This document shows positions 4,644-44,434 of a stretch of 64,000 nt of DNA, in pieces. A model generated the notes under the pieces. It made no database searches. It was not told where the DNA came from and saw only the letters and a program-made list of their open reading frames with translations. The stretch comes from an uncultured Candidatus Saccharibacteria bacterium (GTDB taxonomy: Bacteria; Patescibacteriota; Minisyncoccia; Phycocordibacterales; Phycocordibacteraceae), in the NCBI GenBank assembly GCA_964507275.1, contig CAZDPG010000001.1, positions 547,555 through 611,554 of the forward strand. Direction: 5' to 3'. The position numbers were made by a program, and so were the translations under genes. Every line of letters begins with the position of its first letter. The first letter of the stretch is position 1.

Positions 4644-4657
4644 CGAACTGTCTTACC

Positions 4658-4930: not shown

Positions 4931-5058
4931 GAGTGTCTGCTACTTGGTAATCCCGCGGACGCGGAGCGCGAGAGCGGTATGCCACAAAGTATAGGAAATG
5001 AGCCATATTGCGCAATAGGGCTTGCCAAGCACGCGTGGATAGCGCGAAATCCTAGAAA

Positions 5059-14012: not shown

Positions 14013-15227
14013 ATGAAGTTTCGCGCAACGATACAGAAAGAAGGGGTGCCGAACCAGGAACGAATTATTGAAGCGCCATCGCGTTTTGCTGTCTATGAGC
14101 AGATAGAAAAAGAAGACGAAGTTGTCGTCAACCTTACTGAACTTTCCGGCGCGTTTGCCCTCCCTTCATGGCTTTTCATATCATTCGGTACGGGCATAAA
14201 ACGTTCAGAAATAATCCGCATGGCAAAGAATCTTTCTGCCATGCTCGGCGCAGGACTCTCGCTCGCGCGTGCACTCTCGGTCATTGAGCGTCAATCAGAC
14301 AATAAGCATTTGAAAGCGGTCGCGCTCGGTCTTTCCGAAGCAATCAAACGAGGCGCATCCTTCCATGAAGCTCTCGCGGCATACCCGCATGTATTCTCGG
14401 AATTGTTCATCGCTATGACGAAAGCAGGGGAGGAGTCCGGAGGATTGAACGGAGCGCTGCAGATCGTCGCATTGCAAATGGAACGCTCGGAAGAGCTGGT
14501 CCGTAAGGTCCGCGGGGCGATGATTTACCCAGGAATCATCATCACCGCGGTCGGCATCGTCGGCGTGCTCATGCTCATCTTCGTCGTTCCCACCCTCACG
14601 AGCACGTTCACCGAGCTCGGCGTGGAGATACCGCTCGCTACACGAATGATCGTCAGCCTCTCTGATTTCTTGGCAGCGCACGCATCTCTTGTACTTGCCT
14701 TCATTGCCCTCCTCGGCGTGGGAAGTGTCGCGTTCGTCCGATCAAAAACTGGCGGCAACATCATACTCGCCATTGCCCTCCGAGCACCGGTCATAAAAGA
14801 GCTCGTGCGCGAAACGTACACTGCCCGCGCGGCACGCACTCTCTCGTCCCTTCTTTTCTCCGGTGTGCCGGTGCTTGAAGCGCTTGCCATAACAAAAGAA
14901 GTCGTGCATGCCAGGGTTTTCGCGAATGTGGTTGAAGAAGCATCGACGCATGTGCGGAAAGGAGAGCTTCTATCCGCAGCGTTTTCTAATCATCCAAAAC
15001 TGTATCCTATATTAATGAGCGATATGCTTGCCGTCGGCGAGGAGACAGGGAAAGTCACTGAGATGTTGCAACAAATTGCAGAGTTCTATGAAGAAGATGT
15101 TGCAGAAAAGACAAAGGATCTATCGACCATCATTGAACCAGTGCTCATGATTGTCATCGGTATCGCGGTTGGTATCTTTGCTGTCTCCATGATTTCGCCG
15201 ATATATTCGCTCTCGGGAGCGATATAG
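14013..15227 (+). CDS. pilC: type IV pilus assembly platform protein PilC (GspF family)
   Basis: 404 aa with two GspF domains and three TM segments. Confidence 0.85.
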   Translation: MKFRATIQKEGVPNQERIIEAPSRFAVYEQIEKEDEVVVNLTELSGAFALPSWLFISFGTGIKRSEIIRMAKNLSAMLGAGLSLARALSVIERQSDNKHLKAVALGLSEAIKRGASFHEALAAYPHVFSELFIAMTKAGEESGGLNGALQIVALQMERSEELVRKVRGAMIYPGIIITAVGIVGVLMLIFVVPTLTSTFTELGVEIPLATRMIVSLSDFLAAHASLVLAFIALLGVGSVAFVRSKTGGNIILAIALRAPVIKELVRETYTARAARTLSSLLFSGVPVLEALAITKEVVHARVFANVVEEASTHVRKGELLSAAFSNHPKLYPILMSDMLAVGEETGKVTEMLQQIAEFYEEDVAEKTKDLSTIIEPVLMIVIGIAVGIFAVSMISPIYSLSGAI

Positions 15228-15240: not shown

Positions 15241-17007
15241 CTACCTCACAATCGCGTACGTCCCAGGCAAGACCGCCCACGAACCGCCCGGTCCATTCGA
15301 GAAGCTCGCACTCTGCAATCCGCTCACATACGTTATCGTCGCATTATTCTGCAATTCCAAGCGCTTGGCGGTTACCTGATTCGCCGTCGTGCCATTACTG
15401 ATTTCTATGCCGCCATAGGGCGCGTACAATATGACGCCGGATGTATTGTTCGACATTTCAATAGCTTCTGATCCGGTGTTCGTGCTTATGATCATCGGGA
15501 AGCTGCCTGCGCTTCCATTCCCCTCGATAACGACATTGTTCGAAATGGAGACCCTCCCGGTCGTCGTCGTGGCATTTGTCGCATCGGCAATAAGTACCGC
15601 ACCACTCGTGCCGACGCTTGGCGAGACGAGTAGGGAAGCGTTGTTCGAAAGGAAGATGTTCCCATTCACCCACACCGGGCCTGAGAGAACGAGGGTGGCA
15701 CCGTTCGAAATACTGAGATCTCCATTTATCTTCGCCGGGCCGAGCGTCCGGGAACCTGAGTATGAATACGACCCTGATATCACTTGTCCTGCGGCCGCAG
15801 TTTCCTCCCAGTCTGCAATCTGAGCGTCGGAAATGGGAAGTGGTGCAGGATTGGCGTCGGCAGTTCCCGGATATGAGACCCCCCCAACCGAACAGCTGGA
15901 GATGACCTGATAGGAGGCAGTCCCCCCGACCGAACAGCTGGAAAGCGTGTGTGCCCACGCGTTTCCACCAACAGTCACGCCACTCAGCGAAGTTAATATC
16001 CCATCCCGATAGGTCTTGAACCCGAGGTCACCGGTGATACTCGTCCATGTCGGATTCTGGATGTTCCAGTTACTACTGGATTTTGCGGCTCCTCTCGAGT
16101 ATGAGCCGTTGCTATCGCGCGCCCAGACGAAATAATTGCTCGCATTCACCGATGCAATCGCAATAATCCAATACGTCTGATCCATCGTGAGGGTAGGGGT
16201 GCTGTCGAGGGTCGCTTCAGCAAAGCCGTATGAGGTGGTCACGAGGGACGCAGGAATCGTACCACTCGCAAGTACGGTCGTCCCCGGCTTGCCGCCATTA
16301 TCTGTCACTATTTTCAAGATAAGATTGCTGGGATTCCCTGTTTTCTTCACGTTCAAACTAACTCCTGCGAGTGCTGCGCTCGCCGATGGTTTAAACGATT
16401 GAGCAACGTCCGCGTGCGCCGATGTATCACCTATATTGAAACTGCTGTTCTGCACGGTCATCTGCTGATCCGCAACCGTGTCCGTGCCTACGGCGACAGT
16501 CGCATCGCCGGTTATCGTCCCGCTTCCGGAAACATTGCCATTAGAGAACAGGTTCCCATCTATGCGCGAACCGTTGTTCATAGTCACACCGCCACTCCCT
16601 ATCTGAACGCCATAGCGGAATGAGACGATCGACGAGTTTATCGTCGCGGTCACTCTCACAATTCTCGTAGCAGTCGGATGCACACTGTCTGGAACCGACC
16701 CAGTTACGGTTATGTGTTTCGTATTGCCGTCGACGCTCGCGACCGAGACGCTGAACACACCATTGCCGAGCGGTGTATCAATCTCTCCGGAATAACCGGC
16801 ATCCTGGTTGAGCTCATAAATGGCTTTGTCTATGCCCGCATCGGCAAGCGCCTGCGCTTGCGCCTCAGCGAGCGCGGAGCGTTCAGCATGCACCGCGCTT
16901 CCATAATAGTTGAAGAAGCCGGTTGTAACGGTCATGACAACGGCACTCACAATAAGAGAAAGTATGAGAATGTACCCTTGAGAAAGTGCTGTTGAGTATC
17001 GTTTCAT
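15241..17007 (-). CDS. large minor pilin / pseudopilin-like protein with Asn/Gly-rich β-helix-like repeats
   Basis: The N-terminal hydrophobic segment QGYILILSLIVSAVVM is prepilin-like but lacks Glu5. 588 aa with repetitive NG/SG-rich blocks. Last gene of the pilin operon. Confidence 0.5.
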   Translation of the reverse strand: MKRYSTALSQGYILILSLIVSAVVMTVTTGFFNYYGSAVHAERSALAEAQAQALADAGIDKAIYELNQDAGYSGEIDTPLGNGVFSVSVASVDGNTKHITVTGSVPDSVHPTATRIVRVTATINSSIVSFRYGVQIGSGGVTMNNGSRIDGNLFSNGNVSGSGTITGDATVAVGTDTVADQQMTVQNSSFNIGDTSAHADVAQSFKPSASAALAGVSLNVKKTGNPSNLILKIVTDNGGKPGTTVLASGTIPASLVTTSYGFAEATLDSTPTLTMDQTYWIIAIASVNASNYFVWARDSNGSYSRGAAKSSSNWNIQNPTWTSITGDLGFKTYRDGILTSLSGVTVGGNAWAHTLSSCSVGGTASYQVISSCSVGGVSYPGTADANPAPLPISDAQIADWEETAAAGQVISGSYSYSGSRTLGPAKINGDLSISNGATLVLSGPVWVNGNIFLSNNASLLVSPSVGTSGAVLIADATNATTTTGRVSISNNVVIEGNGSAGSFPMIISTNTGSEAIEMSNNTSGVILYAPYGGIEISNGTTANQVTAKRLELQNNATITYVSGLQSASFSNGPGGSWAVLPGTYAIVR

Positions 17008-17573
17008 AGGTTGCGCAAATAGATGTGTTCACGAAGGTGCGTCTGTATGGTCTCACTCCTCACAATCGCGCTCGTCGTCGCATCGACAATAATGTTTGTC
17101 ACGGAAGGGAAGCTTTGGGTATCGTACACGAAACTGAGTGCACCGAGAACATTCGTTAATCGTTTCTCCCCGGACAGACGACTACTTCCTGGCGCCGCAT
17201 CGATAAGCCGATACGCGACGGTACTCGAAGCGTGGATGCCAATGTAATCATAGGCGCCGGCAATAATAGCGCCCGAGGCATCGACGGAAGGAAGTTCAAA
17301 GAGGACGGTTGTTGTGCTGGAATTATAATTCAAACCGGAAAATGCATGCGTCGCAACAATCTGTCTGGCCTGTGACCCTGCATCACGCACGGCATCCATG
17401 ATGTTATTTCCGCCAAGCGCGACTTCGATTGAGGATTTTTGGGAAATGATGACGCGCCCATACACGACATAGAGCTTCTCAATGGCGAGTATGAGGATCA
17501 CGGAAAGAGCGATGGTGATCAGCACTTCGATGAGCGTAAAAGCGCTATGAGTAGGTATTTTTTTCATACTCAT
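17004..17573 (-). CDS. type IV pilin-like protein (prepilin-type N-terminal domain)
   Basis: THSA|FTLIEVLITIAL is an N-terminal methylation-type motif with Glu5. Confidence 0.65.
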   Translation of the reverse strand: MSMKKIPTHSAFTLIEVLITIALSVILILAIEKLYVVYGRVIISQKSSIEVALGGNNIMDAVRDAGSQARQIVATHAFSGLNYNSSTTTVLFELPSVDASGAIIAGAYDYIGIHASSTVAYRLIDAAPGSSRLSGEKRLTNVLGALSFVYDTQSFPSVTNIIVDATTSAIVRSETIQTHLREHIYLRNL

Positions 17574-17971
17574 ATGCCGCCCGTTCGAGTGATAAGCGTC
17601 GTGAGCGACACGACCCGATCGAGGTTATTGGCACCCCGCCAGGAAACTCCGACCATTACCTGCTTCGTATCCGCGTTCAGAGCGGTCAGGCTCGTGCTTG
17701 CTGTTCCTTGCGGCAAACTCGTCAATTCGGGGACAGAAAAAGAACCTCCTGCAGGGAGCGCCTCATATCCTCCTGCGCGCAGTTCATCAAGTTTCGCACC
17801 TGCAATATGAAATGCGACGCTCTCAAATGCCGCATCGCGAGTGACTTTTATCGTCCCCGTTACGATTGTCACGAATCCGGCCGCCACACTCATGATGAAG
17901 ACCGCAATCAACATCTCGATCAAGGTGAATCCTCTCTTTCTCTGCAGGGGCATCATCTGGAAGTATAGCAA
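17570..17971 (-). CDS. type IV pilin (possible major pilin)
   Basis: Leader MMPLQRKRG|FTLIEMLIAV is a classical prepilin cleavage motif. 133 aa. Confidence 0.7.
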   Translation of the reverse strand: MLYFQMMPLQRKRGFTLIEMLIAVFIMSVAAGFVTIVTGTIKVTRDAAFESVAFHIAGAKLDELRAGGYEALPAGGSFSVPELTSLPQGTASTSLTALNADTKQVMVGVSWRGANNLDRVVSLTTLITRTGGI

Positions 17972-22464: not shown

Positions 22465-23967
22465 TTGATGGGAGCGCTCATCGCCATCGTATCTGGATTC
22501 GCGAGCGGGATATTTTTCCGCTCGCTTTTTTATTTCGGATGGGAGCTCATCGTGTTCTTGATATTTCTCGCTCTGCTTTTCGGCAGTGCTGCATTCATAA
22601 AACCGCGTGCGCTGTATTCTCTCTGCGCGATCTTCTTCATTTTCGTAGCACTCGGCATGATGCGTTCATCAGCAGCTGACACGCCGTTGCCGGAAACATT
22701 TGCGACACAACTTCGGCATCGCGTGTCATATGACGGAGTCGTGGTATCCGATCCGGATGTGCGCGATGCGAACCAGCGCATCGAAGTGCGTGTCTCGAAT
22801 GAGTACGAATCAACGAACCTGCTCGTCGTCGCACTGCGATCCCAGACCGTTCGCGTTGGTGATCATGTCTCCGTCTCTGGCACGCTTCTCGTACCGGAAC
22901 CTTTCGATACCGAAAGCGGTCGTGTCTTTCGCTACGACAAATATTTAGAGCGCAGCGGCATTCGTTTCATTCTTAATTTCGCATCCATCCGCGTCACACA
23001 ACCGGCGCCATGGTATTCGGTCTCGGCGGCGCTCGCACGAGCGAAGCATGCATTTCAAGACGGACTCGCGCGAACTGTTCCTGAACCCTTCGCATCGCTC
23101 GGCGGCGGTATCGTCATCGGTGGAAAGTCTGGTCTCGGAAACGAATTGAAAGACACTTTCACTCGAGCAGGTCTCATACACATCATCGTCCTCTCGGGCC
23201 ACAACGTGATGGTCGTCGCAGAGTGGATTATGGCGCTTCTCGCTTTTACGAAACTCTCGAGACGCATGAGCTTGGGAGCTGGGGCATTCGCCATCCTCGT
23301 ATTCGTCGGTATCGCGGGAGCGTCAGCGACGGCCATCCGTGCCATGTGTATGGCTCTCATCGCACTCTATGCGCGCGCAACAGGGCGCTCTTATGCGGCT
23401 GGCCGGGCACTCTTTTTCGTCATCTTCCTTATGCTGCTCTGGAATCCGCTCTATCTCGTCTTTGATCCCGGTTTCGGTCTCTCGATTGCCGCGACCGCAG
23501 GACTCATCTGGCTTGCACCACTGTTAGAGACGAAACTTTCTTTCTTGAAAAATGCATTCTGGAAAGACGCCATTTCGACAACACTTGCGGCGCAGATATT
23601 CGTACTTCCCATACTCCTCTATAACACTGGAAATCTTTCTATCGTCTCGATACCAGCAAACCTGCTCGCTGTGCCGGTCGTCGCTGTCTCTATGGGATTC
23701 TCGGCGTTCGCCGGATTCGCGGGGATGCTCTTCGGCACGTTCGCTCCGCTCGTGGGCATCATGCTTTCATTGCCGGCATACGCTGCGAACGCGTACCTAA
23801 TCTATATCGCACAGAAGGCCGCCGAACTCCCGTTCGCGGCCTTCATGCTCCCACCTTTCCCATTCTGGCTCGTACTCGTGAGCTATGCGACGCTCATTTA
23901 TATAGTATCTTCGAAACGCTTCTCGACGACAGACCAATTGAGGTTCGCAAGGAACGCATCGATATAA
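22465..23967 (+). CDS. comEC: ComEC/Rec2 DNA-internalisation channel protein (DUF4131 plus competence domain, lacking the β-lactamase domain)
   Basis: 500 aa with many TM helices. Central GGIVIGGKSGLGNELKDTFTRAGLIHIIVLSGHNV competence-domain motif. Confidence 0.75.
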   Translation: MMGALIAIVSGFASGIFFRSLFYFGWELIVFLIFLALLFGSAAFIKPRALYSLCAIFFIFVALGMMRSSAADTPLPETFATQLRHRVSYDGVVVSDPDVRDANQRIEVRVSNEYESTNLLVVALRSQTVRVGDHVSVSGTLLVPEPFDTESGRVFRYDKYLERSGIRFILNFASIRVTQPAPWYSVSAALARAKHAFQDGLARTVPEPFASLGGGIVIGGKSGLGNELKDTFTRAGLIHIIVLSGHNVMVVAEWIMALLAFTKLSRRMSLGAGAFAILVFVGIAGASATAIRAMCMALIALYARATGRSYAAGRALFFVIFLMLLWNPLYLVFDPGFGLSIAATAGLIWLAPLLETKLSFLKNAFWKDAISTTLAAQIFVLPILLYNTGNLSIVSIPANLLAVPVVAVSMGFSAFAGFAGMLFGTFAPLVGIMLSLPAYAANAYLIYIAQKAAELPFAAFMLPPFPFWLVLVSYATLIYIVSSKRFSTTDQLRFARNASI

Positions 23968-26221: not shown

Positions 26222-26320
26222 GGCGTCTTCCCCCAAACAAAGAGCTCATCTGAGCTGATGTGAGTATATATCACAATCACAGCGTGTTTTCCGTTATGCA
26301 CTACTGCTATACTAGACACG

Positions 26321-26764
26321 ATGGAGTATCACGTACCGCAGTTCATCGAGGTCGAAGATAAGATCATCGGGCCGTTGACCCTGAAGCAATTCATCTATAT
26401 CGCCGGTGTCGTCGGCCTCTGCGTCGTCTTCTTCTCGTATCTGCCGTTTATCTTTGCACTCCTACTCTCACTGCCCATAGCGGCACTTGGTATAGCGCTC
26501 GCTTTCTATAAAGTGAATGGCAAGCCTTTTATTCAAATGCTCGAAGCAGGTTTTAATTACTACATAAGCGAAAAGCTTCTCCTCTGGAAGCAGGAAGCGC
26601 CTTCTCCGCAGGAGAATGGTGCGGCAGCAGCATCAGCCGCCGCAGCAGATGCTGCCGTACTCGCTGCGCGTAACACACCGAAACTTACTCGAGGGAAACT
26701 TTCCGAACTCGCATGGTCGCTCGACGTGAAGTCGGCCGAGGAGGTGACAAAAAAAGAATCATGA
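26321..26764 (+). CDS. PrgI-family T4SS membrane protein
   Basis: MEYHVPQFIEVEDKIIGPLTLKQFIYIAGVV N-terminus and two TM helices typical of PrgI (conjugation/T4SS) family proteins, plus an Ala-rich tail. Confidence 0.55.
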   Translation: MEYHVPQFIEVEDKIIGPLTLKQFIYIAGVVGLCVVFFSYLPFIFALLLSLPIAALGIALAFYKVNGKPFIQMLEAGFNYYISEKLLLWKQEAPSPQENGAAAASAAAADAAVLAARNTPKLTRGKLSELAWSLDVKSAEEVTKKES

Positions 26765-27402
26765 GTACCACTGCAACAGAAGCGGGGAAGACCCAGCAAT
26801 TCGTCCCTATCAAGGAGATTCGCAATGGCGTCATCGTCCTTAAGGACGGAGGATATCGCGGCATACTTATTTGTTCGGCGGTCAACTTCGGCCTCAAGTC
26901 CGCTGATGAGCAACATGCCATCACCGTTGGTTTTCAGAACTTCCTCAACACGCTCGATTTCTCCATCCAGATTGTCATACACTCGCGCAAGATGGACCTG
27001 CGTCCGTATATCGCGCTTCTCGAGGAGAAAGCGCCTGGACAGAAGACCGAGCTCATGCGAATCCAACTTCGGGAATACATTGAGTTCGTCCGCTCCTTCA
27101 CCGATCAGACAAACATTATGACGAAATCATTCTATGTCGTTGTCTCCTACGCGCCACGCATCACGGTCGCGCACGCGACGAGCTTCCTGCGACATGACAG
27201 CACCGCGACGAAGAACGCTGCGAACGAGACCTCGTTCGAGGAAGATCGCGCACAGCTCGAACAGCGCCTTTCACTCGTCATTTCCGGACTTGCCGGTACT
27301 GGCGTTCGTGCAGTTCCGCTTGGCACCGAAGAGGAGATTGAACTCTTCTATCGCTCATTTAACCCAGGGGAGCTCGAGAACCCTATTCGTCTCGATTCAT
27401 AA
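26761..27402 (+). CDS. VirB4/TrbE N-terminal domain protein (separate ORF)
   Basis: Start at MSTTATEAGK, a 4-bp overlap with the PrgI stop. QFVPIKEIRNGVIVLKDGGYRGILICSAVNF matches the N-terminal region of VirB4-type ATPases. Ends 2 nt before the ATPase ORF, in a different frame. Confidence 0.55.
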   Translation: MSTTATEAGKTQQFVPIKEIRNGVIVLKDGGYRGILICSAVNFGLKSADEQHAITVGFQNFLNTLDFSIQIVIHSRKMDLRPYIALLEEKAPGQKTELMRIQLREYIEFVRSFTDQTNIMTKSFYVVVSYAPRITVAHATSFLRHDSTATKNAANETSFEEDRAQLEQRLSLVISGLAGTGVRAVPLGTEEEIELFYRSFNPGELENPIRLDS

Positions 27403-27404
27403 AT

Positions 27405-29225
27405 ATGGCCTTACTTGATTTTCTCAACCGCAAAGATAAAGAGGAAGCGCCAGCAATCATGCCGGTGCTGCCGAAAGATATCTACAAGCAGAGCTCGCTT
27501 GATCTCGTTGATACCATCGCGCCGACAGCGCTCAGAATAAGTTCACGCGAAATCGAACTCGGAGAAAAGTTCGTCCGTACGTTCTACACCGTCTCCTATC
27601 CGCGTTTCCTCTCTGACAGTTGGTTCTCTCCGGTCATCAATCTCGACAAAGTGCTTGATGTCTCTCTGTTCATCCACCCGATTGAGACCGAACAGGCACT
27701 TCGTAGCTTCCAGAAAAAGGTTGCCGAGGTCCAAAGCCAGATAAATGAAAGGGAATCCAAAGGACTCGTCCGCGATCCACTCCTTGATACGGCATACCAA
27801 GATCTCGAGAGTCTTCGCGACAGCCTACAGCAAGCACAGGAGAAGCTTTTCGATGTCGGTCTCTACCTGGCTCTCTACGGCGACACCAAGGAGGACATAT
27901 CGAAAACTGAAGGGGAGATACGCGGCATCCTGGATGCGAAGCTTGTCTATACCAAACCGGCCCTCTTCCAGCAGGAGCAGGGATTCCGTTCTTGCTTACC
28001 GCTCGGCTCCGATGAACTTCTCGTCAATTCGAAATTGAATTCATCGCCGCTCTCATCGATATTCCCCTTCGTTTCCTTCGATCTTACGAGCGATCGCGGC
28101 ATCCTCTACGGCATCAACCGACACAACTCTTCACTCATCTTGTTCGATCGTTTCTCTCTCGAAAACTACAATTCCGTCATCTTCGCAAAGTCCGGCTCGG
28201 GTAAAAGCTATGCGACCAAACTTGAGATCCTGCGTTCACTCATGTTCGGCACCGACATCATCGTCATCGATCCTGAGCGTGAATACGAACAGCTGGCTGA
28301 AGCGACAGGCGGACGCTCTTTCAATATCTCTCTTTCATCACTCAACCACATCAATCCGTTCGATCTCCCGCCGGTCAAGGAAGATGAGGATCCGAAAGAC
28401 ATTCTACGTTCCAATATCATTTCTCTCGTCGGTCTCTTCCGCATCATGCTCGGCGGACTCTCCCCTGAAGAAGATGCAATTATCGATCGTGCTGTCAGCG
28501 AAACGTATGCGCTCAAGGATATAACTGGGGATACTGATTTCACTGGAGCCGAACCGCCGCTTCTTTCAGATTTCGAGCAAGTGCTCTCCGGCATGGAAGG
28601 AAGTGAGTCCCTCATCAAGCGTCTCTCAAAATACACACGCGGGACCTGGTCAGGATTCATGAATCAACCTACGAACATCGACCTGAAGCAACAGTTCGCA
28701 GTGTTCTCCGTACGCGATATGGAAGACGAGCTGAAGCCAATCGCGATGTACATCATCACGCATTACATCTGGAACGCCGTTCGTCATGACATGAAAAAAC
28801 GCCTTCTCATCATCGATGAGGCATGGTGGATGATGAAGAGCGACGACACTGCGTCCTTCCTCTATTCGCTTGCAAAACGCGGACGTAAATACTATCTCGG
28901 AGTCTGTACCATTACTCAGGACGTCGAGGACTTCTTGAAGAGCCCGTATGGGAGGCCGATCCTTACGAACTCCTCTCTGCAACTTCTCCTGAAGCAATCC
29001 CCAACGACGATTGATGTGCTGCAACAGACGTTCAATCTCACAGACGAAGAGAAATACCTCCTGCTTGAGGCAGGGGTGGGGGAGGGGCTCTTCTTCGCCG
29101 GATTAAAGCATGTCGCCATCAAGATCGTCGCGAGCTATACCGAAGACCAGATCATCACGTCCGATCCCTCGCAACTTCTCGCGATAAAGCAAGAGAAGGC
29201 TCGGTATGCCGCAGAACAGAAATAA
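27405..29225 (+). CDS. virB4: VirB4-like type IV secretion ATPase (C-terminal ATPase portion)
   Basis: Walker A FAKSGSGKSYATK, Walker B LLIIDEAWWMM, and the CTITQDVEDF motif. Confidence 0.85.
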   Translation: MALLDFLNRKDKEEAPAIMPVLPKDIYKQSSLDLVDTIAPTALRISSREIELGEKFVRTFYTVSYPRFLSDSWFSPVINLDKVLDVSLFIHPIETEQALRSFQKKVAEVQSQINERESKGLVRDPLLDTAYQDLESLRDSLQQAQEKLFDVGLYLALYGDTKEDISKTEGEIRGILDAKLVYTKPALFQQEQGFRSCLPLGSDELLVNSKLNSSPLSSIFPFVSFDLTSDRGILYGINRHNSSLILFDRFSLENYNSVIFAKSGSGKSYATKLEILRSLMFGTDIIVIDPEREYEQLAEATGGRSFNISLSSLNHINPFDLPPVKEDEDPKDILRSNIISLVGLFRIMLGGLSPEEDAIIDRAVSETYALKDITGDTDFTGAEPPLLSDFEQVLSGMEGSESLIKRLSKYTRGTWSGFMNQPTNIDLKQQFAVFSVRDMEDELKPIAMYIITHYIWNAVRHDMKKRLLIIDEAWWMMKSDDTASFLYSLAKRGRKYYLGVCTITQDVEDFLKSPYGRPILTNSSLQLLLKQSPTTIDVLQQTFNLTDEEKYLLLEAGVGEGLFFAGLKHVAIKIVASYTEDQIITSDPSQLLAIKQEKARYAAEQK

Positions 29226-29844
29226 CACAAAGCCGCCTGAGGCGATGACATGGTCGAAAGCGGCGCCAATGATTGTTGTCGCTGGTGTCTTTGATCTCGT
29301 GCGAATCTTTTTTGAAATGTTCTGGTTCTTCGGCCCAGCGCTCGTCGCAGTATATTGCTCCATGAGCGTGGGCGACTGGGTCGGGTCTTTATGGGGACTG
29401 ACTGAAGCTGCGTGTACGACGGCTGCCGGTATCGCTGGTTTCTATGGTGCGGCGATAACCATACCGTTCGGAACGACGATGGCGATGGCCACCGGCCTTT
29501 TTGGCTACCTTACACTTGGGTTGTGGATTCTCATGAAGAACCCGCGGATATTCATAGCCAACGCGAGCGGATCGCTCTGGCTTGCTGGCAGCTTCGGCGT
29601 GAGTGTCGTTCCACTTATTGGCGCAATACCGGCCTTTTCGCTCGTTCTCTGGCGCCTGTACCGGACACAGATACACGTCGAGAAGGCGGCGTTAAAGAAA
29701 TGGGAGAAGGAACACGCCTCGGAGAAGCTTCAGGAACGACAGAAACAAACGGCTGAATTCATGCGTATGCAGCAAGAGGCGGCACATGCTGCCGAATATG
29801 AGCAGGATGACGAAATCCCCGAAGAAGTGCGTAGCGCTGCGTAA
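29206..29844 (+). CDS. polytopic membrane protein, T4SS-associated (possible VirB6/TrbL-like)
   Basis: 4-5 TM helices with an acidic C-terminal tail. Embedded in the T4SS-like operon. Confidence 0.4.
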   Translation: MPQNRNNTKPPEAMTWSKAAPMIVVAGVFDLVRIFFEMFWFFGPALVAVYCSMSVGDWVGSLWGLTEAACTTAAGIAGFYGAAITIPFGTTMAMATGLFGYLTLGLWILMKNPRIFIANASGSLWLAGSFGVSVVPLIGAIPAFSLVLWRLYRTQIHVEKAALKKWEKEHASEKLQERQKQTAEFMRMQQEAAHAAEYEQDDEIPEEVRSAA

Positions 29845-29873
29845 ACACCATCCAGAGGCTATATACTAGGAGC

Positions 29874-30869
29874 ATGCGTTCTAGCCTCCTCATCATCTTC
29901 GCTTTCATACTTTTATCGCCGCTTACGGCAATGGCTCAGTCGCTCGATAGTTTGACCGGAAGCGGCGAGCCTTTCTCCGTGTCAATAAACCCTCGCTATC
30001 CAACTCCCTATAGCCAGGCGACCATCTCATTACTTTCGTCTACGCTCGACCTCACAAACGCCACTCTGAATGTCTCGATGGGGAGTAAGCGCGTATACCA
30101 GGGGAACGTGAAGCCAGTCGCCATTCCGCTCGGTAGGGCAGGAAGTGTCGCTTCGGTGTCGGTAACTGTGACCATCGACGGAACGCCATATTCGCAGTCA
30201 TTCGTGATACAGCCTCAAGACGTCGCTCTTGTCATCGAACCGAAAGCATCGGCACCTATCCTCTATCGAGGAAAGCCTCTTATCCCGCTCGAGGGAAGTA
30301 CGCGCGTGGTCTCGATGGCGAACATGCGGGATGCGGGGGGGAAAATAATCCCATCATCATCACTCGCGTACACATGGACGGTCGATGGTACCCAGATAGC
30401 GAGTGCTTCGGGTATCGGCAAGGAAGCTCTTATCGTCGCTTCACCGCTTCAATATCGAGATCGCTCCGTTTCGGTCGTTGTTAGGAGCCAGAACGGATTA
30501 CTCGTAGGAGGAGCCTCCATTTCTTTCTCTCCAGCCGATCCAATGGTGCGGGTATATAAGAACGATCCGCTACTCGGCATCCTTTTCGATCATGCTCTTT
30601 CTGGTACCTATACGATAGCCGACACGGAGGCGACGATCTATGGAGTTCCGTATTCTTTCCCGCTTCTGAGTGGTACACCTCGAATCCAATGGTTCCTGAA
30701 CGGCAACCTCGCGCAGACCGGCGATTCAATAACCCTGCGTCCATCCGGTAACGGGGAAGGGAATGCTTCTCTCTCGGTTAGCGCCTCAGCCGGTACGTCA
30801 GCGAGTGCCGTGACGGAACTGTTGCTTTCTTTTGGTGCGAAAAAGTCATTTAACTTCTTTGGCTTATGA
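29874..30869 (+). CDS. secreted protein with signal peptide, hypothetical
   Basis: MRSSLLIIFAFILLSPLTAMA|QS signal peptide. β-rich, repetitive. Confidence 0.5.
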   Translation: MRSSLLIIFAFILLSPLTAMAQSLDSLTGSGEPFSVSINPRYPTPYSQATISLLSSTLDLTNATLNVSMGSKRVYQGNVKPVAIPLGRAGSVASVSVTVTIDGTPYSQSFVIQPQDVALVIEPKASAPILYRGKPLIPLEGSTRVVSMANMRDAGGKIIPSSSLAYTWTVDGTQIASASGIGKEALIVASPLQYRDRSVSVVVRSQNGLLVGGASISFSPADPMVRVYKNDPLLGILFDHALSGTYTIADTEATIYGVPYSFPLLSGTPRIQWFLNGNLAQTGDSITLRPSGNGEGNASLSVSASAGTSASAVTELLLSFGAKKSFNFFGL

Positions 30870-31501
30870 AAAAAATAATCATTCTGAGCGTTTTAGCATT
30901 CTTCGGCTTCGCGGCGCACACGCTCGCAGCAGAAGGATTCACGGCGCTCGCTCCTATCACCGGACTCACTGATGCCGGAGCGACAAGCGTCATAGACGCG
31001 GACTCGCTCGCTAACTTCTTCAATAATCTCTATAAATACCTCATTGGACTCGCCGCGACGCTCGCCGTCATTGAGATCATCTGGGGCGGGCTCGAGATAT
31101 CAACGAAGGATTCCGTCAGCAAGCAGAGTGACGGCAAAGAACGCATCACCCAAGCCATATTCGGCCTCATACTCGTCCTGTCACCGGTACTCGTCTTCTC
31201 CATTATCAATCCAAGTATCCTGAACCTTTCTCTTAATCTTCCCCCGCTTGATACCAAGGCCGGAACGTTCACCGGACCAGCTCCAGAAACCTCAGGGACG
31301 GCGACTGGTCCTTCATTCCCAACATCCTCCTTTCAACAAAACTGCGCCCAGTATAATGACTCAAGTCACAGTATAATATCTCCGCCATCCTCAGACAGTT
31401 GTTCTAAATATGGCGGAACGGATATTGATGTTGCCTGCTGCTTTCCTAATGGAGGAGTTGATACAAGTAAATTCCACTGTTGCGTGACACCCAAACAATA
31501 G
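30866..31501 (+). CDS. candidate T4SS pilin (VirB2/TrbC-like topology) with Cys-rich C-terminal extension
   Basis: Signal peptide MKKIIILSVLAFFGFAAHTLAA, then two hydrophobic helices (LIGLAATLAVIEIIWGGL and AIFGLILVLSPVLVFSII), then a tail containing 6 Cys. Confidence 0.4.
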   Translation: MKKIIILSVLAFFGFAAHTLAAEGFTALAPITGLTDAGATSVIDADSLANFFNNLYKYLIGLAATLAVIEIIWGGLEISTKDSVSKQSDGKERITQAIFGLILVLSPVLVFSIINPSILNLSLNLPPLDTKAGTFTGPAPETSGTATGPSFPTSSFQQNCAQYNDSSHSIISPPSSDSCSKYGGTDIDVACCFPNGGVDTSKFHCCVTPKQ

Positions 31502-31503
31502 CC

Positions 31504-32712
31504 ATGCGCCGATCACTCATCATCTCCATCGTCGTGCTCGTCCTCATCACGCTCAGTGCGGGTGTATACGTCTATCTTTCAACAACCTCAGCTGGTATCA
31601 CGGTCGCACCGGTCGGGGACACCAGCTTCCCTGTAGCGGGGCAGCAGGGTTCTCCGAGCACCAGCACTGGAGCGTCTGATGCGACCGATACTCTTCCCGG
31701 AGCACCCGTCTCCGTCTCTACGCGACTGGTACAGATAAGTGCTGGGCCCGTTGTACCAGGAGCGGTCGTTGTCGACATGAAAGCGAAAGACGCGAGCTCG
31801 ACGCCGGAAGTTGCCGTGAATTATATCGAACGGGGAAGCGGGAATGTCTTTTCCTACCTCACCCGAGCGAAGACGCTTACCCGAGTGAACAACAAGACCA
31901 TTCCAGGGATACAATCTGCACAGTGGCTTCCAAACGGGTCGTTCTCATTCGTACGCTATCTTTCAGGGAGTGATTTCTCGACTATCAATACCTACGCGCT
32001 TGCGGCGACGAGCTCAAGCGGCTTCTTCCTTCCCCAAAATCTCGCTGACATTGCTGTTTCTGCCTCTGGGGTCCTCACGCTTTCCTCAGGCGTGAATGGA
32101 TCTGTCGTTTCGCTCTCAAGGGTCGATGGTACGCGAACGACGACACTATTCACCACACCACTCTCATCGCTCCGCGTTTCTTTCTTGGGCAAGAATCAGT
32201 ATCTCGCTTTTACGAAACCTTCGGGAACCCTTTCGGGGCATGCTTTTATCGTCGATAGCGCCGGGCATTTCTCCCGTATCGCCGGTCCAGAGAACGGTCT
32301 CGTCGCCCTCGCGAGCCCATCAGGGAAGTGGGTGCTCGTAAGCTCTACGAAAGGAAGCTTGATGCAGTTGGAGCTCATCGACACTACAACCGGCAGCTCA
32401 CTCGCCCTTCCGATTGCGACCATTGCTGACAAATGCGTATGGGCAGCTGACGATGCTTCTGTTTATTGCGGTGTTCCTGTAAACCCGGATTCGGCATATG
32501 TGTATCCTGATGATTGGTATCAGGGTGCCGCACATTTCTCTGACCGCATATGGAAGATACAGGTCGTGGGACGGTATGCGCAGCTCGTACTTGATTTTTC
32601 TGAGGCGAAGAGCGGCAATCTCGATGTTGAGTCAATTGCCATCGACCCAGCTGGAGCGGCGCTCGTCTTCACTAATAGGAACGATGGTTCCCTTTGGAGT
32701 TACTCGATCTGA
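31504..32712 (+). CDS. membrane-anchored β-propeller-like protein, hypothetical
   Basis: N-terminal TM anchor LIISIVVLVLITLSAGVYVYL. Repeated SPSGKWVLVS-type blades. Confidence 0.45.
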   Translation: MRRSLIISIVVLVLITLSAGVYVYLSTTSAGITVAPVGDTSFPVAGQQGSPSTSTGASDATDTLPGAPVSVSTRLVQISAGPVVPGAVVVDMKAKDASSTPEVAVNYIERGSGNVFSYLTRAKTLTRVNNKTIPGIQSAQWLPNGSFSFVRYLSGSDFSTINTYALAATSSSGFFLPQNLADIAVSASGVLTLSSGVNGSVVSLSRVDGTRTTTLFTTPLSSLRVSFLGKNQYLAFTKPSGTLSGHAFIVDSAGHFSRIAGPENGLVALASPSGKWVLVSSTKGSLMQLELIDTTTGSSLALPIATIADKCVWAADDASVYCGVPVNPDSAYVYPDDWYQGAAHFSDRIWKIQVVGRYAQLVLDFSEAKSGNLDVESIAIDPAGAALVFTNRNDGSLWSYSI

Positions 32713-33440
32713 TGAGGACTATCAGTGATAATCGTGCGGCGGACGTGCCACTCCTGAAGTGAACCAGCGAGGTTCGTAGCGATGAAATAGAGCGCAACAG
32801 CGCCTGACGTCGTGTAGGAAATAGCGGCAATAAGGAACGGGAAGACGTATTTGAGTTGCAGGCCGATAATCCTCTGGAAATCTCCTTGCATGCCACCGTT
32901 TTGTGACGGTTTCATTGTGCCCTTGAGCGCCATATGCGCTTGAAGCAATTGCGTGAGGCCGGCGCATGCCGCTAAGAAAATACTCTTGCCAGTGACTGAG
33001 ATGATTCCGAGGAATTCAAGGGATATGGTATGCGGGACGGGCGTGAGCGCATAGAGCCGTGCGAGGTTTATAGCCGGAAATGGCTCGTAGTAGAAGACCC
33101 AGTAGAGTGCGAGGAGGATAGGAATTTGGATGAAAACCATAAGGATGCTCGCGAATGGATTTACTTCCGCTTCCTTATAGAGAGCAAGTGTTTCAAGAGC
33201 TTCTTTCTCCTTATCTCCCTTGTGTGTCTCCTTCAGAGCTTTTATCTTCGGTTCGAGCTCCTTCATCGTGCGCTGTGTGCGGGCTGCGGAAAGGGAGAAG
33301 GGGAGGAGGAGGAGGCGAATCAGAATCGTCAGGATAATAACCGCGATACCGACGTCAGAGCCTGGGACAAGAGCGACAAGAGCGACAAGAGCATTGTAGA
33401 TCGGATTATAGAAAACAGTGTGAAAGAAAGCTGAAATCAC
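32700..33440 (-). CDS. yidC: membrane protein insertase YidC/Oxa1 (short form)
   Basis: 246 aa with 5 TM helices and the conserved IQIPILLALYW region. Confidence 0.85.
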   Translation of the reverse strand: MISAFFHTVFYNPIYNALVALVALVPGSDVGIAVIILTILIRLLLLPFSLSAARTQRTMKELEPKIKALKETHKGDKEKEALETLALYKEAEVNPFASILMVFIQIPILLALYWVFYYEPFPAINLARLYALTPVPHTISLEFLGIISVTGKSIFLAACAGLTQLLQAHMALKGTMKPSQNGGMQGDFQRIIGLQLKYVFPFLIAAISYTTSGAVALYFIATNLAGSLQEWHVRRTIITDSPHQIE

Positions 33441-33451
33441 AGGTGGGGTAG

Positions 33452-33763
33452 TTAGTCTTTTATACTTGAAACAAGGTTTATAAGCTCAACCTTGAGGTCT
33501 TGGTATCTTACACTACTTGCGGTTGATCGTGGGAATACAATCAAAGAGGGAGGGAGTGGAAGTGTGCGTAGTACCTCAAGCACTTGGCGCTTCAGGCGAT
33601 GCCTTCCAGACGAAAGTCGGATGACTTTCTTAGGTATAACGACTGCATACCCATGAGCTTCTTCGGGAAGCACTATAACAAAATGGGGTGAGGAGAATCT
33701 CCTACCAGCCTTGAGGGCGGCCGGGAATTGGGCGCGAGAGAGCCGTTCTCGACGTGAGAACAC
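33452..33763 (-). CDS. rnpA: ribonuclease P protein component
   Basis: 103 aa, basic, with an RLKRQ motif. Sits between rpmH and yidC. Confidence 0.75.
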   Translation of the reverse strand: MFSRRERLSRAQFPAALKAGRRFSSPHFVIVLPEEAHGYAVVIPKKVIRLSSGRHRLKRQVLEVLRTLPLPPSLIVFPRSTASSVRYQDLKVELINLVSSIKD

Positions 33764-33769
33764 AGAAAA

Positions 33770-33910
33770 TCAGACGGCGAGGCTTGCCCTCCCCACGCGA
33801 CGACGCTTTTGGATGATTTTTCGGCCGGAAGCCGTCTCTGAACGCGAGAGAAACCCGTGAGTTGTGGCGCGTTTACGCTTTTTTGGTTGATAGGTTCTTT
33901 TCGTTGCCAT
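33770..33910 (-). CDS. rpmH: 50S ribosomal protein L34
   Basis: Hand-translated (not in the ORF track): [46 protein letters not shown]. Confidence 0.85.
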
Positions 33911-34006
33911 ACAGGATGGAAATTAGGTTGTACCCATGATACTAACAGTTTCTCCACGAAACGCCAGTGTGCGGTAGATTCTGAATGAGCGTATACTCCA
34001 AGGAAT

Positions 34007-35359
34007 ATGGACAAGGGAAATACGCGTGAACTCTGGGAACACATACTGACCCAAATCGAACTTTCGATATCGCCCGCGAATTTCAACACCTGGTTTAGAA
34101 ACAGCTTTATCGTAAAGATAGGAGAAGATGGTGTTGTCTATATCGGTGTGCCGAGTCAGTTCTTCAAGGATTGGTATCTTAAGAAATTCCATACACTCCT
34201 TCTCAAGATCGTTCGTGAAGTATCATATGAATTCCGCAATATCGAATATCTCATCGTGAAAGATGAGCATCGAAAAGTTCCAAAAGAGAATAAGGTCACA
34301 CGGGGAGCACTTGAGCTCCCGCTTGAGGATTTCTATATAAACAAGAGCGATAATCTGAACCCTCGCTATACCTTCGACACATTCGTTATTGGTTCTTTCA
34401 ATAATCTCGCCTATGTGGCTGCACAAGCAGCTTTGAACCGCCCAGGAATCACCTACAACCCTCTTTTCATCTACGGCGATACCGGCCGCGGTAAGACACA
34501 CCTTATTCAAGCAATCGGGAATCAATTCAAGAAGCAGTATCAGGGTAGGAAGGTTTTCTATCTCACCTCGGAAAAGTTCGCTATCGACTATACCGATTCC
34601 GTACAGGCAGGAACGGCGAACCGTTTCAAGGATAAATATCGCCAATATGATCTTCTCATTATGGATGATGTGCAGTTTCTTTCGAAGAAAGACAAGACCC
34701 AGGAAGAACTCTTTCATCTCTTCAATGCACTCTATGACACGAATAAACAAATTATATTCTCCTCTGATCGCTCCCCAGCATCGATTCCTGATATCGCTGA
34801 ACGACTAAAGAGCCGTCTTGGAAGCGGTATGGCGGTCGATATTAGCGAACCAGACCCTGAATCCCGTATGGCCATTGTGCAGAAAAAGGCTGCGTTGCAC
34901 GGTATTATCCTGTCGGATGAGGTTATTGAATATGTTGCAACAACACTTTCGGGATCAATTCGCGAACTGGAAGGTATGGTGAATAGTATTGTTTGTCATG
35001 CACAAGTGAAAGGGAGTGCTCCTGATATCGCTGAAGTACGACAATCCCTTCGATCATTCACTCGTCCTCAGAAGAATATTTCTGTGAAGAATGTAGTTGA
35101 TAAGGTCGCTGAATTCTATGGGATTGATGAAGAGAGTATTTATGAAAAGACTCGAAGGAGGGAAGTGGTCCGTCCTCGACAGATCATTATGTACATCCTT
35201 CGTGAAGATTTTAATATTTCCTATCCGACGATTGGTTCGAAACTTGGTGGACGCGATCATACGACAGTTATCCACTCCTGTGAGAAGATAAAGCGGGAAA
35301 TAGTTGTTGATAACGATCTTTCAAAAGAGATTCAAGATATTCGCAGCCTCCTTGTATGA
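34007..35359 (+). CDS. dnaA: chromosomal replication initiator DnaA
   Basis: N-terminal LWEHILTQIE, AAA+ Walker A GDTGRGKTHL, and a C-terminal domain IV helix-turn-helix. Confidence 0.95.
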   Translation: MDKGNTRELWEHILTQIELSISPANFNTWFRNSFIVKIGEDGVVYIGVPSQFFKDWYLKKFHTLLLKIVREVSYEFRNIEYLIVKDEHRKVPKENKVTRGALELPLEDFYINKSDNLNPRYTFDTFVIGSFNNLAYVAAQAALNRPGITYNPLFIYGDTGRGKTHLIQAIGNQFKKQYQGRKVFYLTSEKFAIDYTDSVQAGTANRFKDKYRQYDLLIMDDVQFLSKKDKTQEELFHLFNALYDTNKQIIFSSDRSPASIPDIAERLKSRLGSGMAVDISEPDPESRMAIVQKKAALHGIILSDEVIEYVATTLSGSIRELEGMVNSIVCHAQVKGSAPDIAEVRQSLRSFTRPQKNISVKNVVDKVAEFYGIDEESIYEKTRRREVVRPRQIIMYILREDFNISYPTIGSKLGGRDHTTVIHSCEKIKREIVVDNDLSKEIQDIRSLLV

Positions 35360-35471
35360 TGTTTACTAAACACTTATCAACAAGTTTTAGTAACTCATAC
35401 AAGGAAATAATCCTTTCATTTACTCATCATTTCAGCTTATCCCCATTACCAACACCCCTAATAAGAATCGT
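35360..35471. other. candidate oriC (AT-rich dnaA-dnaN intergenic region with DnaA-box-like 9-mers)
   Basis: TTATCAACA at 35375 and TTATCCCCA at 35447, each one mismatch from TTATCCACA. TTATCCACT at 35268 lies just inside the dnaA 3' end. The region is strongly AT-rich. Confidence 0.5.
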
Positions 35472-36572
35472 ATGAATATTTTAATTGAAAAAAAAGAATT
35501 CTCTGAAGCTGTGCATATCGTCTCACGATTTGCGGAACGAAAGAGTGCAACGCTTCCAGCACTTTCTTCCATTCTTATTATTGCGGGTGATGATGGTATT
35601 AAGTTGCGCGCTACAAATCTTGAGACAGGTATTGATCTAAAACTCTCAGGGAAAATAACAACTCATGGTGTCGTTGCTATTCCAGCGACAATACTTCAGC
35701 AAATAGCTGGTTCATTCACTCAAGAGGGAGATATAACCCTCGAACATACGGGAGATATTGTTTCTATAGTGAGCGGTACAGGGAAAAGCTCAATAAAGAC
35801 CGTCCCATATGATGATTTTCCCTCAATCCCTTTCCCAGAGAATCCTAAGAACAGAATAGTTATTCCAGGAATACTTCTTAAAAACCTATTCACTTCAATA
35901 GCTTCTTGCGCCTCTACATCAACCGTCAGACCTGAGCTTTCAAGTATTTATATATCAATAGAGGGAAGTGTTCTTACTGCGGTTGCAACTGATTCGTTCA
36001 GACTTGCAGAAAAGAAAGTACCTCTTTCAAATAAAGGGACGCAAGGAAAGTTCCTTATTCCAGCGAAGAATGCGCTCGATATAGCGCAAGCGCTTCCGGA
36101 TAATGAGATAATTATGTCGTTCGATGAGCATCAGTGTGCATTCGTTGGTGAGATGGGAATGCTCGTCTCTCGGCTTACGAATGCTGTCTATCCTGATTAC
36201 CGCCAGATCATACCAAAAGAATCAGTTGTGGAAGCAATTATCCTACGAAAGGATTTTGAAACCGCCCTAAAGAGAACGACAATATTCTCTGATTCATTTC
36301 AAAAAGTGCGTATGAGTTTTGATCCAAAAAAGAATCTCTTTGCATTCTTTGCGCGGAATGTCGACATAGGAGAATCATCAGAAACACTTCCAGCGCGCGT
36401 ATCGGGGAGTGCTCTTGATCTCTCATTTAACCATCGATACCTTTCTGCTGTCCTCTCCCTCACTTCTGCCGAAAGCCTCTCATTGACTGCCGCTGGCATA
36501 GGACGACCACTTATTATAAAAGGGGTCGGAGATACTTCTCTCCTCTATCTTGTTTCTCCAATGAACCAATAA
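35472..36572 (+). CDS. dnaN: DNA polymerase III β sliding clamp
   Basis: 366 aa with a three-domain β-clamp pattern (MNILIEKKEFSEAV...). Confidence 0.9.
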   Translation: MNILIEKKEFSEAVHIVSRFAERKSATLPALSSILIIAGDDGIKLRATNLETGIDLKLSGKITTHGVVAIPATILQQIAGSFTQEGDITLEHTGDIVSIVSGTGKSSIKTVPYDDFPSIPFPENPKNRIVIPGILLKNLFTSIASCASTSTVRPELSSIYISIEGSVLTAVATDSFRLAEKKVPLSNKGTQGKFLIPAKNALDIAQALPDNEIIMSFDEHQCAFVGEMGMLVSRLTNAVYPDYRQIIPKESVVEAIILRKDFETALKRTTIFSDSFQKVRMSFDPKKNLFAFFARNVDIGESSETLPARVSGSALDLSFNHRYLSAVLSLTSAESLSLTAAGIGRPLIIKGVGDTSLLYLVSPMNQ

Positions 36573-44331: not shown

Positions 44332-44434
44332 GTGCCCATGATAGCTGAGAAGTGGCGGGAAGAGCAGGGGGATTGACAAAATGGTGTAAATAGTGGTATT
44401 ATTTTTCCTAGGATACCACTCACAGGAGACAGAA

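Follow-up and report, generated by a model that had tools for sequence, protein, structure and literature searches.

A probable non-conjugative type IV secretion locus in a groundwater Kaiserbacteria-like Paceibacterium, and the candidate outer parts encoded with it

The type IV secretion systems (T4SSs) of Patescibacteria, or candidate phyla radiation (CPR), are the closest described relatives of the locus analysed here, which occupies positions 26321-32712 of a 64,000-nucleotide stretch of genomic DNA (the window; contig CAZDPG010000001.1, forward strand, 547,555 to 611,554). A 2025 survey (Quinonero-Coronel et al., PMC12102498) found VirB4 in 2,417 of 3,035 Patescibacteria genomes, as a clade nested in the mating-pair formation class MPF-FATA. 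TrsD was the most frequent partner of VirB4, and PrgI/VirB3 proteins and PF18895/VirB2-like pilins were encoded near virB4. A VirB6 homologue was present in a minority of genomes, there were almost no relaxases, and type IV coupling proteins (T4CPs), where present, were distant from virB4. Paceibacteria and several other classes place the T4SS near dnaA, dnaN, rnpA and rpmH, and ABY1 differs. The same survey described the Gram-positive MPF-FATA systems as lacking a pilus, with a separate TrsD in the pGO1 subclass, and proposed that the patescibacterial systems import DNA or other macromolecules.

Transposon sequencing (Tn-seq) of Southlakia showed T4SS genes to be essential for epibiotic growth (Wang et al. 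2023, PMC10633639), the essential set including PrgI, a TrsD-like gene, VirB4, a VirB6-like gene and a pilin array. Also annotated at the Southlakia locus are lysozymes, giant VirB6-like proteins, an NTF2-like protein and an exported Ig-like/PEGA protein that is essential (PMC10633639). A 2026 preprint described tubular structures, possibly T4SS pili, at the parasite-host interface, tied parasitism in Minisyncoccota to acquisition of host RNA and showed VirB4 to be monophyletic.

The seven genes of the window locus (g1 to g7, Table 1) are read here, with a probability of roughly 0.72, as a chromosomal, non-conjugative T4SS of the Patescibacteria type in a groundwater Kaiserbacteria-like Paceibacterium, working by the mechanism proposed below. 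The core of the system is already known in Patescibacteria; within the literature searched, what is undescribed is its outer parts: a tail-swapping pilin, a secreted protein and a propeller. The words "propeller" and "Kaiserbacteria" are absent from the main text of the 2025 survey, which does not discuss pilin extensions (PMC12102498). A preliminary description of the window, made from its letters and translated open reading frames (ORFs), had proposed a T4SS-like, non-conjugative apparatus in an episymbiont. Family matches and the fixed position beside yidC-rnpA-rpmH-dnaA-dnaN agree with that proposal, and such systems had already been published.

The PrgI-TrsD-VirB4 core and its setting

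The g1 protein matched the Pfam family PrgI (PF12666; E 3.7e-10, 40.6 bits against a cut-off of 27), as the preliminary description had suggested, and its hydropathy profile showed one strong hydrophobic helix. The VirB4 ATPase named there was also recovered: g3 scored 379 bits (cut-off 325) against the NCBIfam profile NF045971 (conju_CD1110), over profile positions 181-733, and matched Pfam P-loop_TraG with E 3e-25. Residues 38-566 of g3 align with residues 228-772 of PrgJ of plasmid pCF10 at 26% identity (E 3e-44). The Walker A (AKSGSGKS) and Walker B (LLIIDEAW) motifs, read from the translation, are intact. The matches of g3 to CedB and CedD were weak and partial, confined to the P-loop region and far below cut-off.

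The g2 protein matched only the N-terminal positions 1-164 of NF045971, together with the NCBIfam profiles TrsD (NF041427) and Mbov_0397 VirB4 (positions 100-234). The TraC-like domain PF26593 is precomputed on a protein identical to g2 and on its relatives, and the g2 profile gave a weak match to PrgJ 55-141. An earlier label of "split VirB4" is therefore apt in that two ORFs cover the N- and C-terminal parts of the profile colinearly, but not in the sense of a broken gene: g2 is a separate ORF of 209-218 aa in all 60 loci that contain it, so that this is a stable two-gene arrangement and not decay. A pseudogenised VirB4 was considered and ruled out, as g2 and g3 are separate and full-length, are kept in 60/60 loci and match the published pair of TrsD and VirB4. 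PrgI (g1), TrsD (g2, the VirB4 N-domain in trans) and g3 are thus shown by homology to be the parts of a predicted energising complex at the cytoplasmic membrane.

For comparison, 80 species-level loci were collected by a genome scan with the g7 alignment; all are Kaiserbacteria-like. Every locus of sufficient length has g1-g7 in the same order beside yidC-rnpA-dnaA-dnaN, and the seven-gene arrangement is therefore far beyond chance. VirB4 is 84-94% identical to the window protein, which indicates strong purifying selection. The corresponding ranges are 64-86% for TrsD, 47-73% for PrgI, 27-52% for g4, 48-65% for g5 and 51-72% for g7.

Five more distant g7 representatives were looked up and three of them were checked with profiles of the locus. 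In these three, where g7 is about 27-30% identical, the order PrgI, TraC-like protein, VirB4, g5 homologue, pilin, g7 is maintained, the g5 homologues being found at E 1e-37 to 1e-53 and the pilins having 233-557 aa; yidC, rnpA, dnaA and dnaN follow g7 wherever the contig continues. The fourth, L094, has the same layout by its Pfam table, and the contig of the fifth, L093, ends just upstream of g7. Two distant lineages without g4 carry genes for 900-1080-aa proteins upstream of PrgI. The accessory genes do co-occur with VirB4 in other genomes: throughout the sufficiently long Kaiserbacteria-like loci and, for g5-pilin-g7, in the distant lineages as well.

Scans of the operon genes and the large unassigned ORFs of the 64-kb window with Pfam, NCBIfam and PHROGs found no relaxase and no VirD4/T4CP. 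This is in line with the preliminary description, which had reported neither and had concluded that the locus is not a standard conjugation module; no complete conjugative module was found within the window.

Some relatives carry insertions in or beside the core genes. In L094, from a related Paceibacteria genome, VirB4 (3633-7433) is 1266 aa long and carries an intein that includes a LAGLIDADG homing endonuclease. An insert of about 0.9 kb lies between TrsD and VirB4 in L007 (3517-4339), L048, L053 and L059, and there is none in the window. The L007 insert holds a 155-aa ORF and a 124-aa ORF resembling 23S_rRNA_IVP/bAvd four-helix-bundle genes; at the T4SS locus of L094, Pfam flagged genes of this kind at 1493-1864, 3234-3590 and 11376-11741.

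Pilin, membrane protein, secreted protein and propeller

The g6 protein matched T4SS_pilin (PF18895) with 35.3 bits (cut-off 26.6) and gave no match to PF04956 at E<=1. Its hydrophobic segments lie at residues 4-22 (signal-peptide-like), 58-76 and 97-115, and the VirB2/TrbC-like topology put forward earlier (signal peptide, two transmembrane helices and Cys-rich tail) fits the PF18895 match and these segments. Homology shows g6, as a predicted protein, to be a VirB2-type pilin. A conserved two-helix core, at approximately residues 25-122, is followed by a tail of 89 residues with six Cys. The core is highly conserved among the relatives (FxPLAPIPGLT ... NNLYKYLIGLAA ... GLVLVLSPVLVFSIINPSILNLS).

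The tails are variable. Among 69 Kaiserbacteria species they range from 11 to 330 residues, with an even number of Cys in 68 of the 69, and the 68 tails long enough for comparison fell into 24 sequence classes under strict clustering. The strict procedure replaced single linkage without composition correction, which had lumped nearly all tails together via low-complexity linkers. The window's tail class is common only to L036 (50% identity). The nearest neighbour by g7 has the same tail class in 26/69 species, against a chance expectation of 21%, and the distribution of classes appears to follow phylogeny weakly. Some relatives have a Cys-rich insert between signal peptide and core, and in some the pilin, which reaches 512 aa, has a C- or N-terminal domain of 200-330 aa. 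The VirB2 topology places both ends of the pilin on the outside, and the variable tail domains would therefore be surface-exposed and disulfide-bonded.

Hydropathy analysis of g4 showed 3-5 hydrophobic segments, consistent with its first description as a protein with four or five transmembrane helices. It had no family match in Pfam, NCBIfam or PHROGs and none that was significant among PDB sequences. All 96 detectable homologues are Paceibacteria/Kaiserbacteria-like. Of the distant loci, L087 has a 143-aa form (E 5e-12), and L088 and L090 have none. The protein could fill the role of VirB6, the membrane channel, although this is unproven. The g4 orthologue of L060 (5752-7524) has 590 aa: behind the conserved membrane part come a Pro-rich linker and, at the C-terminus, a domain of about 250 aa for which the window g4 has no counterpart.

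A single signal-like segment at the N-terminus of g5 is consistent with its being a secreted protein, as was proposed from the outset. Its C-terminal part gave a weak, below-cut-off match to BiPBP_C (PF06832, E 1e-4), a family that is also precomputed on three g5 homologues. The search found 676 homologues, and no relative among PDB sequences. The possibility that g5 consists of three Ig-like repeats was tried and found to be unsupported: hhalign comparisons between the thirds of the protein gave probabilities of 1-3%, and no internal repeats were detectable. The last residues, F329-G330-L331, are nearly invariant among Kaiserbacteria orthologues and missing in the distant L087 homologue; this C-terminal FGL may be a docking or sorting motif.

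For g7, hydropathy indicated one N-terminal transmembrane helix. An AlphaFold2 (AF2) model built on 29 close homologues was poor (pLDDT, the predicted local distance difference test, 54) and was replaced by one built on an alignment of 121 diverse sequences, which had a pLDDT of 91.1 and a predicted template modelling score (pTM) of 0.81. This model consists of a transmembrane helix (residues 2-27), a disordered linker (29-63) and a propeller (75-401); its best structural matches are 7-bladed propellers, at sequence identities of 7-15%. A conserved Cys pair and a YPDxWYQG motif are present. We are confident, from the model, that g7 is a beta-propeller with an N-terminal transmembrane anchor, which is what the preliminary description had proposed, with a start codon that has since been moved (see below). 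When 1.84 billion representatives were searched with a g7 profile, 3416 matched at E<=1e-3, of which 1222 reached E<=1e-30; almost all of the matches have about 400-430 aa and align from end to end. The family representatives are 50%-identity clusters (>3,400). There is no Pfam model for this family, and scattered weak matches to PD40, WD40, DUF5050 and DPPIV_N were all that Pfam gave. Among PDB sequences the best match of the deeper g7 profile was TolB, at E 0.004, and nothing was significant for g4, g5 or g7.

Gene layout, promoter-like boxes and surroundings

All seven genes are on the + strand at the coordinates first reported, with the exception of the start of g7, and the ORF listing shows them to be co-oriented and tightly packed (Table 1).

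Table 1 Genes and promoter-like boxes of the window locus (positions in the window)
Feature	Coordinates	Strand	Description
g1	26321..26764	+	PrgI/VirB3-like small membrane protein, 147 aa
g2	26761..27402	+	TrsD/TraC-like protein, 213 aa; VirB4 N-terminal domain as a separate polypeptide
g3	27405..29225	+	VirB4-family ATPase, 606 aa, without the usual N-terminal domain
g4	29206..29844	+	Small polytopic membrane protein, 212 aa, with charged C-terminal tail
g5	29874..30869	+	Predicted secreted protein, 331 aa, unknown fold
g6	30866..31501	+	VirB2-like T4SS pilin (PF18895), 211 aa, with Cys-rich variable C-terminal tail
g7	31504..32712	+	Predicted membrane-anchored 7-bladed beta-propeller, 402 aa
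Extended -10 box TGcTATACT	26305..26313 (TATACT 26308-26313)	+	Promoter-like; ends 7 nt before the g1 ATG
Second TATACT box	29862..29867	+	Promoter-like; 6 nt before the g5 ATG, inside the 29-nt g4-g5 gap

The stop and start codons overlap as ATGA at g1/g2 and g5/g6, g3 and g4 overlap by 20 nt, and gaps of 2 nt and 29 nt separate g2 from g3 and g4 from g5. These junctions are as first described, except that an overlap at 31480/31501 is not real. It came from an assumed TTG start at 31480, which is wrong; g7 starts at the ATG at 31504, 2 nt past the g6 stop, because its orthologues align from M9 of the TTG ORF, an invariant column, and gene callers give 402 aa.

The spacing is similar in relatives: g1, g2 and g3 are 1-5 nt apart, as are g6 and g7, and 29 nt is the most common g4-g5 gap. 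The g3/g4 overlap is 20-23 nt in 49/61 loci, the g5/g6 overlap is ATGA in 36/71 and the g6-g7 spacer is no longer than 10 nt in 93%. Such spacing suggests that translation is coupled within each of the groups g1-g4 and g5-g7.

The sequence cTGcTATACT(N7)ATG upstream of g1 is kept in nearly all of 45 Kaiserbacteria loci, and TATATACTAG(N4)ATG upstream of g5 is kept in nearly all loci. As conserved TATACT boxes precede g1 and g5 and the 29-nt gap between g4 and g5 is conserved, the locus probably comprises two leaderless-type transcription units, g1-g4 and g5-g7. The packing and co-orientation behind the earlier term "tight operon" are thus real, but a single unit is not what they probably represent. 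A promoter function for both boxes is inferred from their position and conservation. TATACT is also found 5-10 nt before an ATG at 10738, 18007 and dnaA (33990-33995), at 54079 and, on the - strand, at 52819, 17956 and 9137, as well as at g1 and g5; its recurrence at several gene starts suggests wide use of leaderless or very short-leader mRNAs in this organism.

Upstream of the locus are recJ, a gene for RNase H, comEC (22465-23967), sodA (- strand), rpmB and a gene for an M50 protease, with comEC and recJ 2-6 kb away. Downstream, yidC, rnpA and rpmH converge on g7 and are followed by dnaA and dnaN. The small rpmH gene (L34), shorter than the length limit of the ORF listing and read by eye from the sequence, is at 33772-33909 on the - strand, between rnpA and dnaA. 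The GC content of the locus is near that of its flanks. Four of the eight DnaA-box-like sites of the window lie at 35268-35445, from the end of dnaA to the dnaA-dnaN spacer, GC drops to 41.7% at 34-36 kb and the cumulative GC skew has its minimum near 32 kb; the replication origin is probably within 32000-35500. Both T4SS units, being on the + strand to the left of the origin, would therefore be transcribed toward it, head-on to the leftward fork. This orientation is unexpected for genes proposed to gain from origin-proximal dosage.

Genes of the type IV pilus kind share the window. A 588-aa ORF at 15241-17007 (- strand) has weak GspK pseudopilin similarity, and ORFs at 10687-12486, 14013-15227 and 17004-17971 (- strand) were read as PilB-like, PilC-like and prepilin-like, respectively. 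The PF00437 (T2SSE) ATPase at 42661-44460 (- strand) was included in the scans and has an MshEN domain, typical of PilB-type pilus ATPases.

The two ends of the window have features of their own. Positions 1-4000 have low GC (43.5%, compared with about 54% elsewhere) and encode a HerA-like DUF87 ATPase (17-1600). This was considered as a coupling protein and ruled out, its best matches being HerA proteins of anti-phage defence and repair. A LOOT RNA (RF03000) directly downstream of it at 1643-1780 scored 66 bits (gathering score 46.4), and the region could be a defence or mobile island. At the other end, tRNA-Leu(gag) (58890-58977) is overlapped at its 3' end by the gene for a large serine recombinase (58956-60602, - strand), which has Resolvase and Recombinase domains and a PHROG integrase match (E 9e-45). 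Next comes an ORF of 727 aa (61333-63516, - strand), for which Pfam, NCBIfam and PHROGs gave no match; 58890-63516 is probably the edge of an integrated element.

Proposed mechanism, alternatives and comparison with known systems

From the biology of VirB4 and VirB2 it is proposed that the VirB4 complex, with g4 as its translationally coupled membrane partner, would extract the pilin from the membrane and polymerise it into a surface filament or conduit. On such a filament the disulfide-rich tail would lie on the outer surface, where it could determine host specificity. The genes g5 and g7 would share with the pilin gene a transcript that starts at a leaderless-type promoter of its own, and their products would most likely form an extracytoplasmic scaffold or adhesion module; in Paceibacteria this g5-g7 module may replace the VirB6, VirB8 and adhesin parts that can be recognised in other T4SSs. 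The orthologous system of Southlakia is essential for epibiotic growth, and by analogy the machine would bring about host-cell contact and the transfer of macromolecules. A further claim is made tentatively, as rather less than an even chance: that Paceibacteria have a distinct extracellular T4SS module with its own promoter, composed of a pilin with interchangeable, disulfide-rich host-specificity domains (at least 24 classes in 69 species), g5, and a propeller family that would be a new T4SS component.

Several points weigh against the proposed mechanism. Only operon structure and synteny tie g5 and g7 to the T4SS, and their co-occurrence with it could be inherited and not functional, because the yidC-rnpA-dnaA-dnaN region is itself conserved. 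For neither protein was a pCF10 homologue found: comparison of g4-g7 with the pCF10 Prg proteins by hhalign and hmmsearch gave no match, a result of low power that says little because the positive control, g1 against PrgI, failed too. No VirB6, PrgH or TrbL similarity was detectable in g4 (family scans, PDB sequences and the pCF10 comparison), and g4 is missing from some related loci. The g6 protein, at 211 aa and up to 512 aa in relatives, is far larger than classical VirB2, and we know of no biochemical demonstration that a PF18895 protein forms a pilus. A T4CP may lie elsewhere in the genome, outside the window.

Some of these points can be taken to mean that only g1-g4 and the pilin belong to the T4SS, with g5 and g7 being unrelated envelope proteins (for example Tol-like, or a cell-wall scaffold) in a frozen neighbourhood close to the origin. 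The promoter-like box of g5 and the conserved gap that separates it from g4 would fit this, as would the finding that every sampled g7 context adjoins yidC/dnaA, which makes synteny inseparable from ancestry. For the T4SS locus of Southlakia the annotation tables use neither a propeller nor a TolB term, and g5 and g7 have no match to a T4SS family. The pilin gene, however, sits between g5 and g7 with the ATGA overlap and short spacer already described, and the g5-pilin-g7 order survives down to 27-30% identity of g7 while other neighbours change, g4 being lost and large upstream genes gained. This explanation is therefore regarded as quite unlikely. It is also unlikely, if slightly less so, that g6 is a non-polymerising two-helix anchor displaying a variable Cys-rich adhesin, in which case the VirB4 complex would be a channel or secretion ATPase without a pilus. 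It is true that g6 is 2-5 times longer than classical VirB2, that some relatives have terminal domains of 200-330 aa and that the Gram-positive MPF-FATA systems, the source of this VirB4, have no pilus (PMC12102498). Against an anchor stand the PF18895 score above cut-off, a signal peptide and two helices in the VirB2 topology, and a pilin core as highly conserved as would be expected for packing between subunits, along with the tubular structures at the patescibacterial host interface (preprint) and the essential pilin genes of Southlakia (PMC10633639).

The nearness of comEC and recJ, together with the weak partial matches of g3 to CedB and CedD, raises the question of whether the locus encodes a machine for import of DNA or other nucleic acid, like ComB or Ced, that acts with the nearby ComEC channel. 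Import was proposed in the 2025 survey (PMC12102498), and the link between Minisyncoccota parasitism and host RNA acquisition in the preprint points the same way. In Southlakia, however, growth requires the T4SS but can proceed without comEC, and competence relies on type IV pili (PMC10633639, PMC12857230); the CedB and CedD matches are limited to the P-loop, and the recJ-comEC neighbourhood is known only from Kaiserbacteria-like loci whose upstream flank was inspected, its proximity having no independent support. A nucleic acid importer is, on balance, very unlikely. A decayed or cryptic integrative conjugative element might be suspected from a VirB4 family typed on conjugative elements of Firmicutes and from the large serine recombinase that abuts tRNA-Leu 26 kb away. 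The recombinase is outside the conserved block, and all sufficiently long loci of the 80, as well as more distant lineages, have the same position and flanks. Nearby, the scans found no relaxase, T4CP or integrase, the GC content is near that of the flanks and VirB4 is 84-94% conserved. This reading is effectively excluded because the chromosomal context is fixed.

If the locus is the non-conjugative T4SS that is favoured here, its interest lies at the host-facing side. Few machines have been shown to be essential to the epibiotic life of CPR bacteria, and the T4SS is among them; Paceibacteria are the largest class of the CPR. The locus adds nothing to the known core; the host-facing parts in Paceibacteria differ from the Saccharimonadia model, with a single pilin that has cassette-like cysteine-rich ends, a conserved secreted partner and a propeller of a very large unannotated family. 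Should they prove to be true components, g5, the pilin tails and g7 would be natural candidates for host recognition, and would offer handles for tagging, for antibodies and for the prediction of host range in lineages that cannot yet be cultured.

Comparison with individual systems places the locus as follows. TolB of the Tol-Pal system has an N-terminal alpha/beta domain and a six-bladed propeller that binds Pal. The g7 model has no globular N-terminal domain, only the transmembrane helix and linker ahead of the propeller; its best matches are 7-bladed, its similarity to TolB is marginal and no Pal-like gene was seen in the operon. With respect to PD40/WD40 propellers, g7 forms a large family of its own. 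According to the preliminary description, model T4SSs contain no known equivalents of the accessory proteins, and g4, g5 and g7 indeed gave no significant match in Pfam, NCBIfam, PHROGs, PDB sequences or the pCF10 Prg proteins, the last with a failed control.

With the Prg/Pcf system of pCF10 (MPF-FATA) the locus has in common the order of PrgI followed by VirB4 and a VirB4 of the CD1110 type. The pCF10 relaxase, PcfC T4CP, PrgK-type hydrolase, PrgH (VirB6), PrgL (VirB8-like) and LPXTG adhesins have no recognised equivalent at the window locus; Pfam and NCBIfam found no PrgK/CwlT hydrolase or PrgL domain in g1-g7, and the pCF10 comparison detected no similarity to PrgK or PrgL. The TrsC-TrsD-TrsE system of pGO1 likewise has the VirB4 N-domain as a separate TrsD protein. 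Whereas the Gram-positive MPF-FATA systems have no VirB2-like pilin, the window locus has one, which shares a signal peptide and two hydrophobic helices with the VirB2/TrbC/TraA pilins and differs from them in the long Cys-rich C-terminal extension. ComB of Helicobacter and Ced of Sulfolobales resemble the locus in having a VirB4-type ATPase without a relaxase and in the import role that has been proposed for Patescibacteria, but the similarity to CedB and CedD is marginal, in the P-loop, and other ComB or Ced components were not detected.

The closest agreement is with the Patescibacteria-clade T4SS (PMC12102498), including SEML1_0005-0019 of Southlakia epibionticum (PMC10633639). Common to both are PrgI/VirB3, a separate TrsD, an MPF-FATA-type VirB4 and a PF18895 pilin, the position by dnaA/dnaN/rnpA/rpmH, and the fact that no relaxase or T4CP was found nearby. 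Southlakia has an array of short divergent pilins, whereas the window locus has one pilin with a long, variable, Cys-rich tail. None of the seven genes was recognised as encoding a giant VirB6-like protein, an NTF2/VirB8-like protein or a lysozyme; the window operon has instead a 212-aa polytopic protein, a 331-aa protein that is predicted to be secreted and, by its model, a membrane-anchored 7-bladed propeller.

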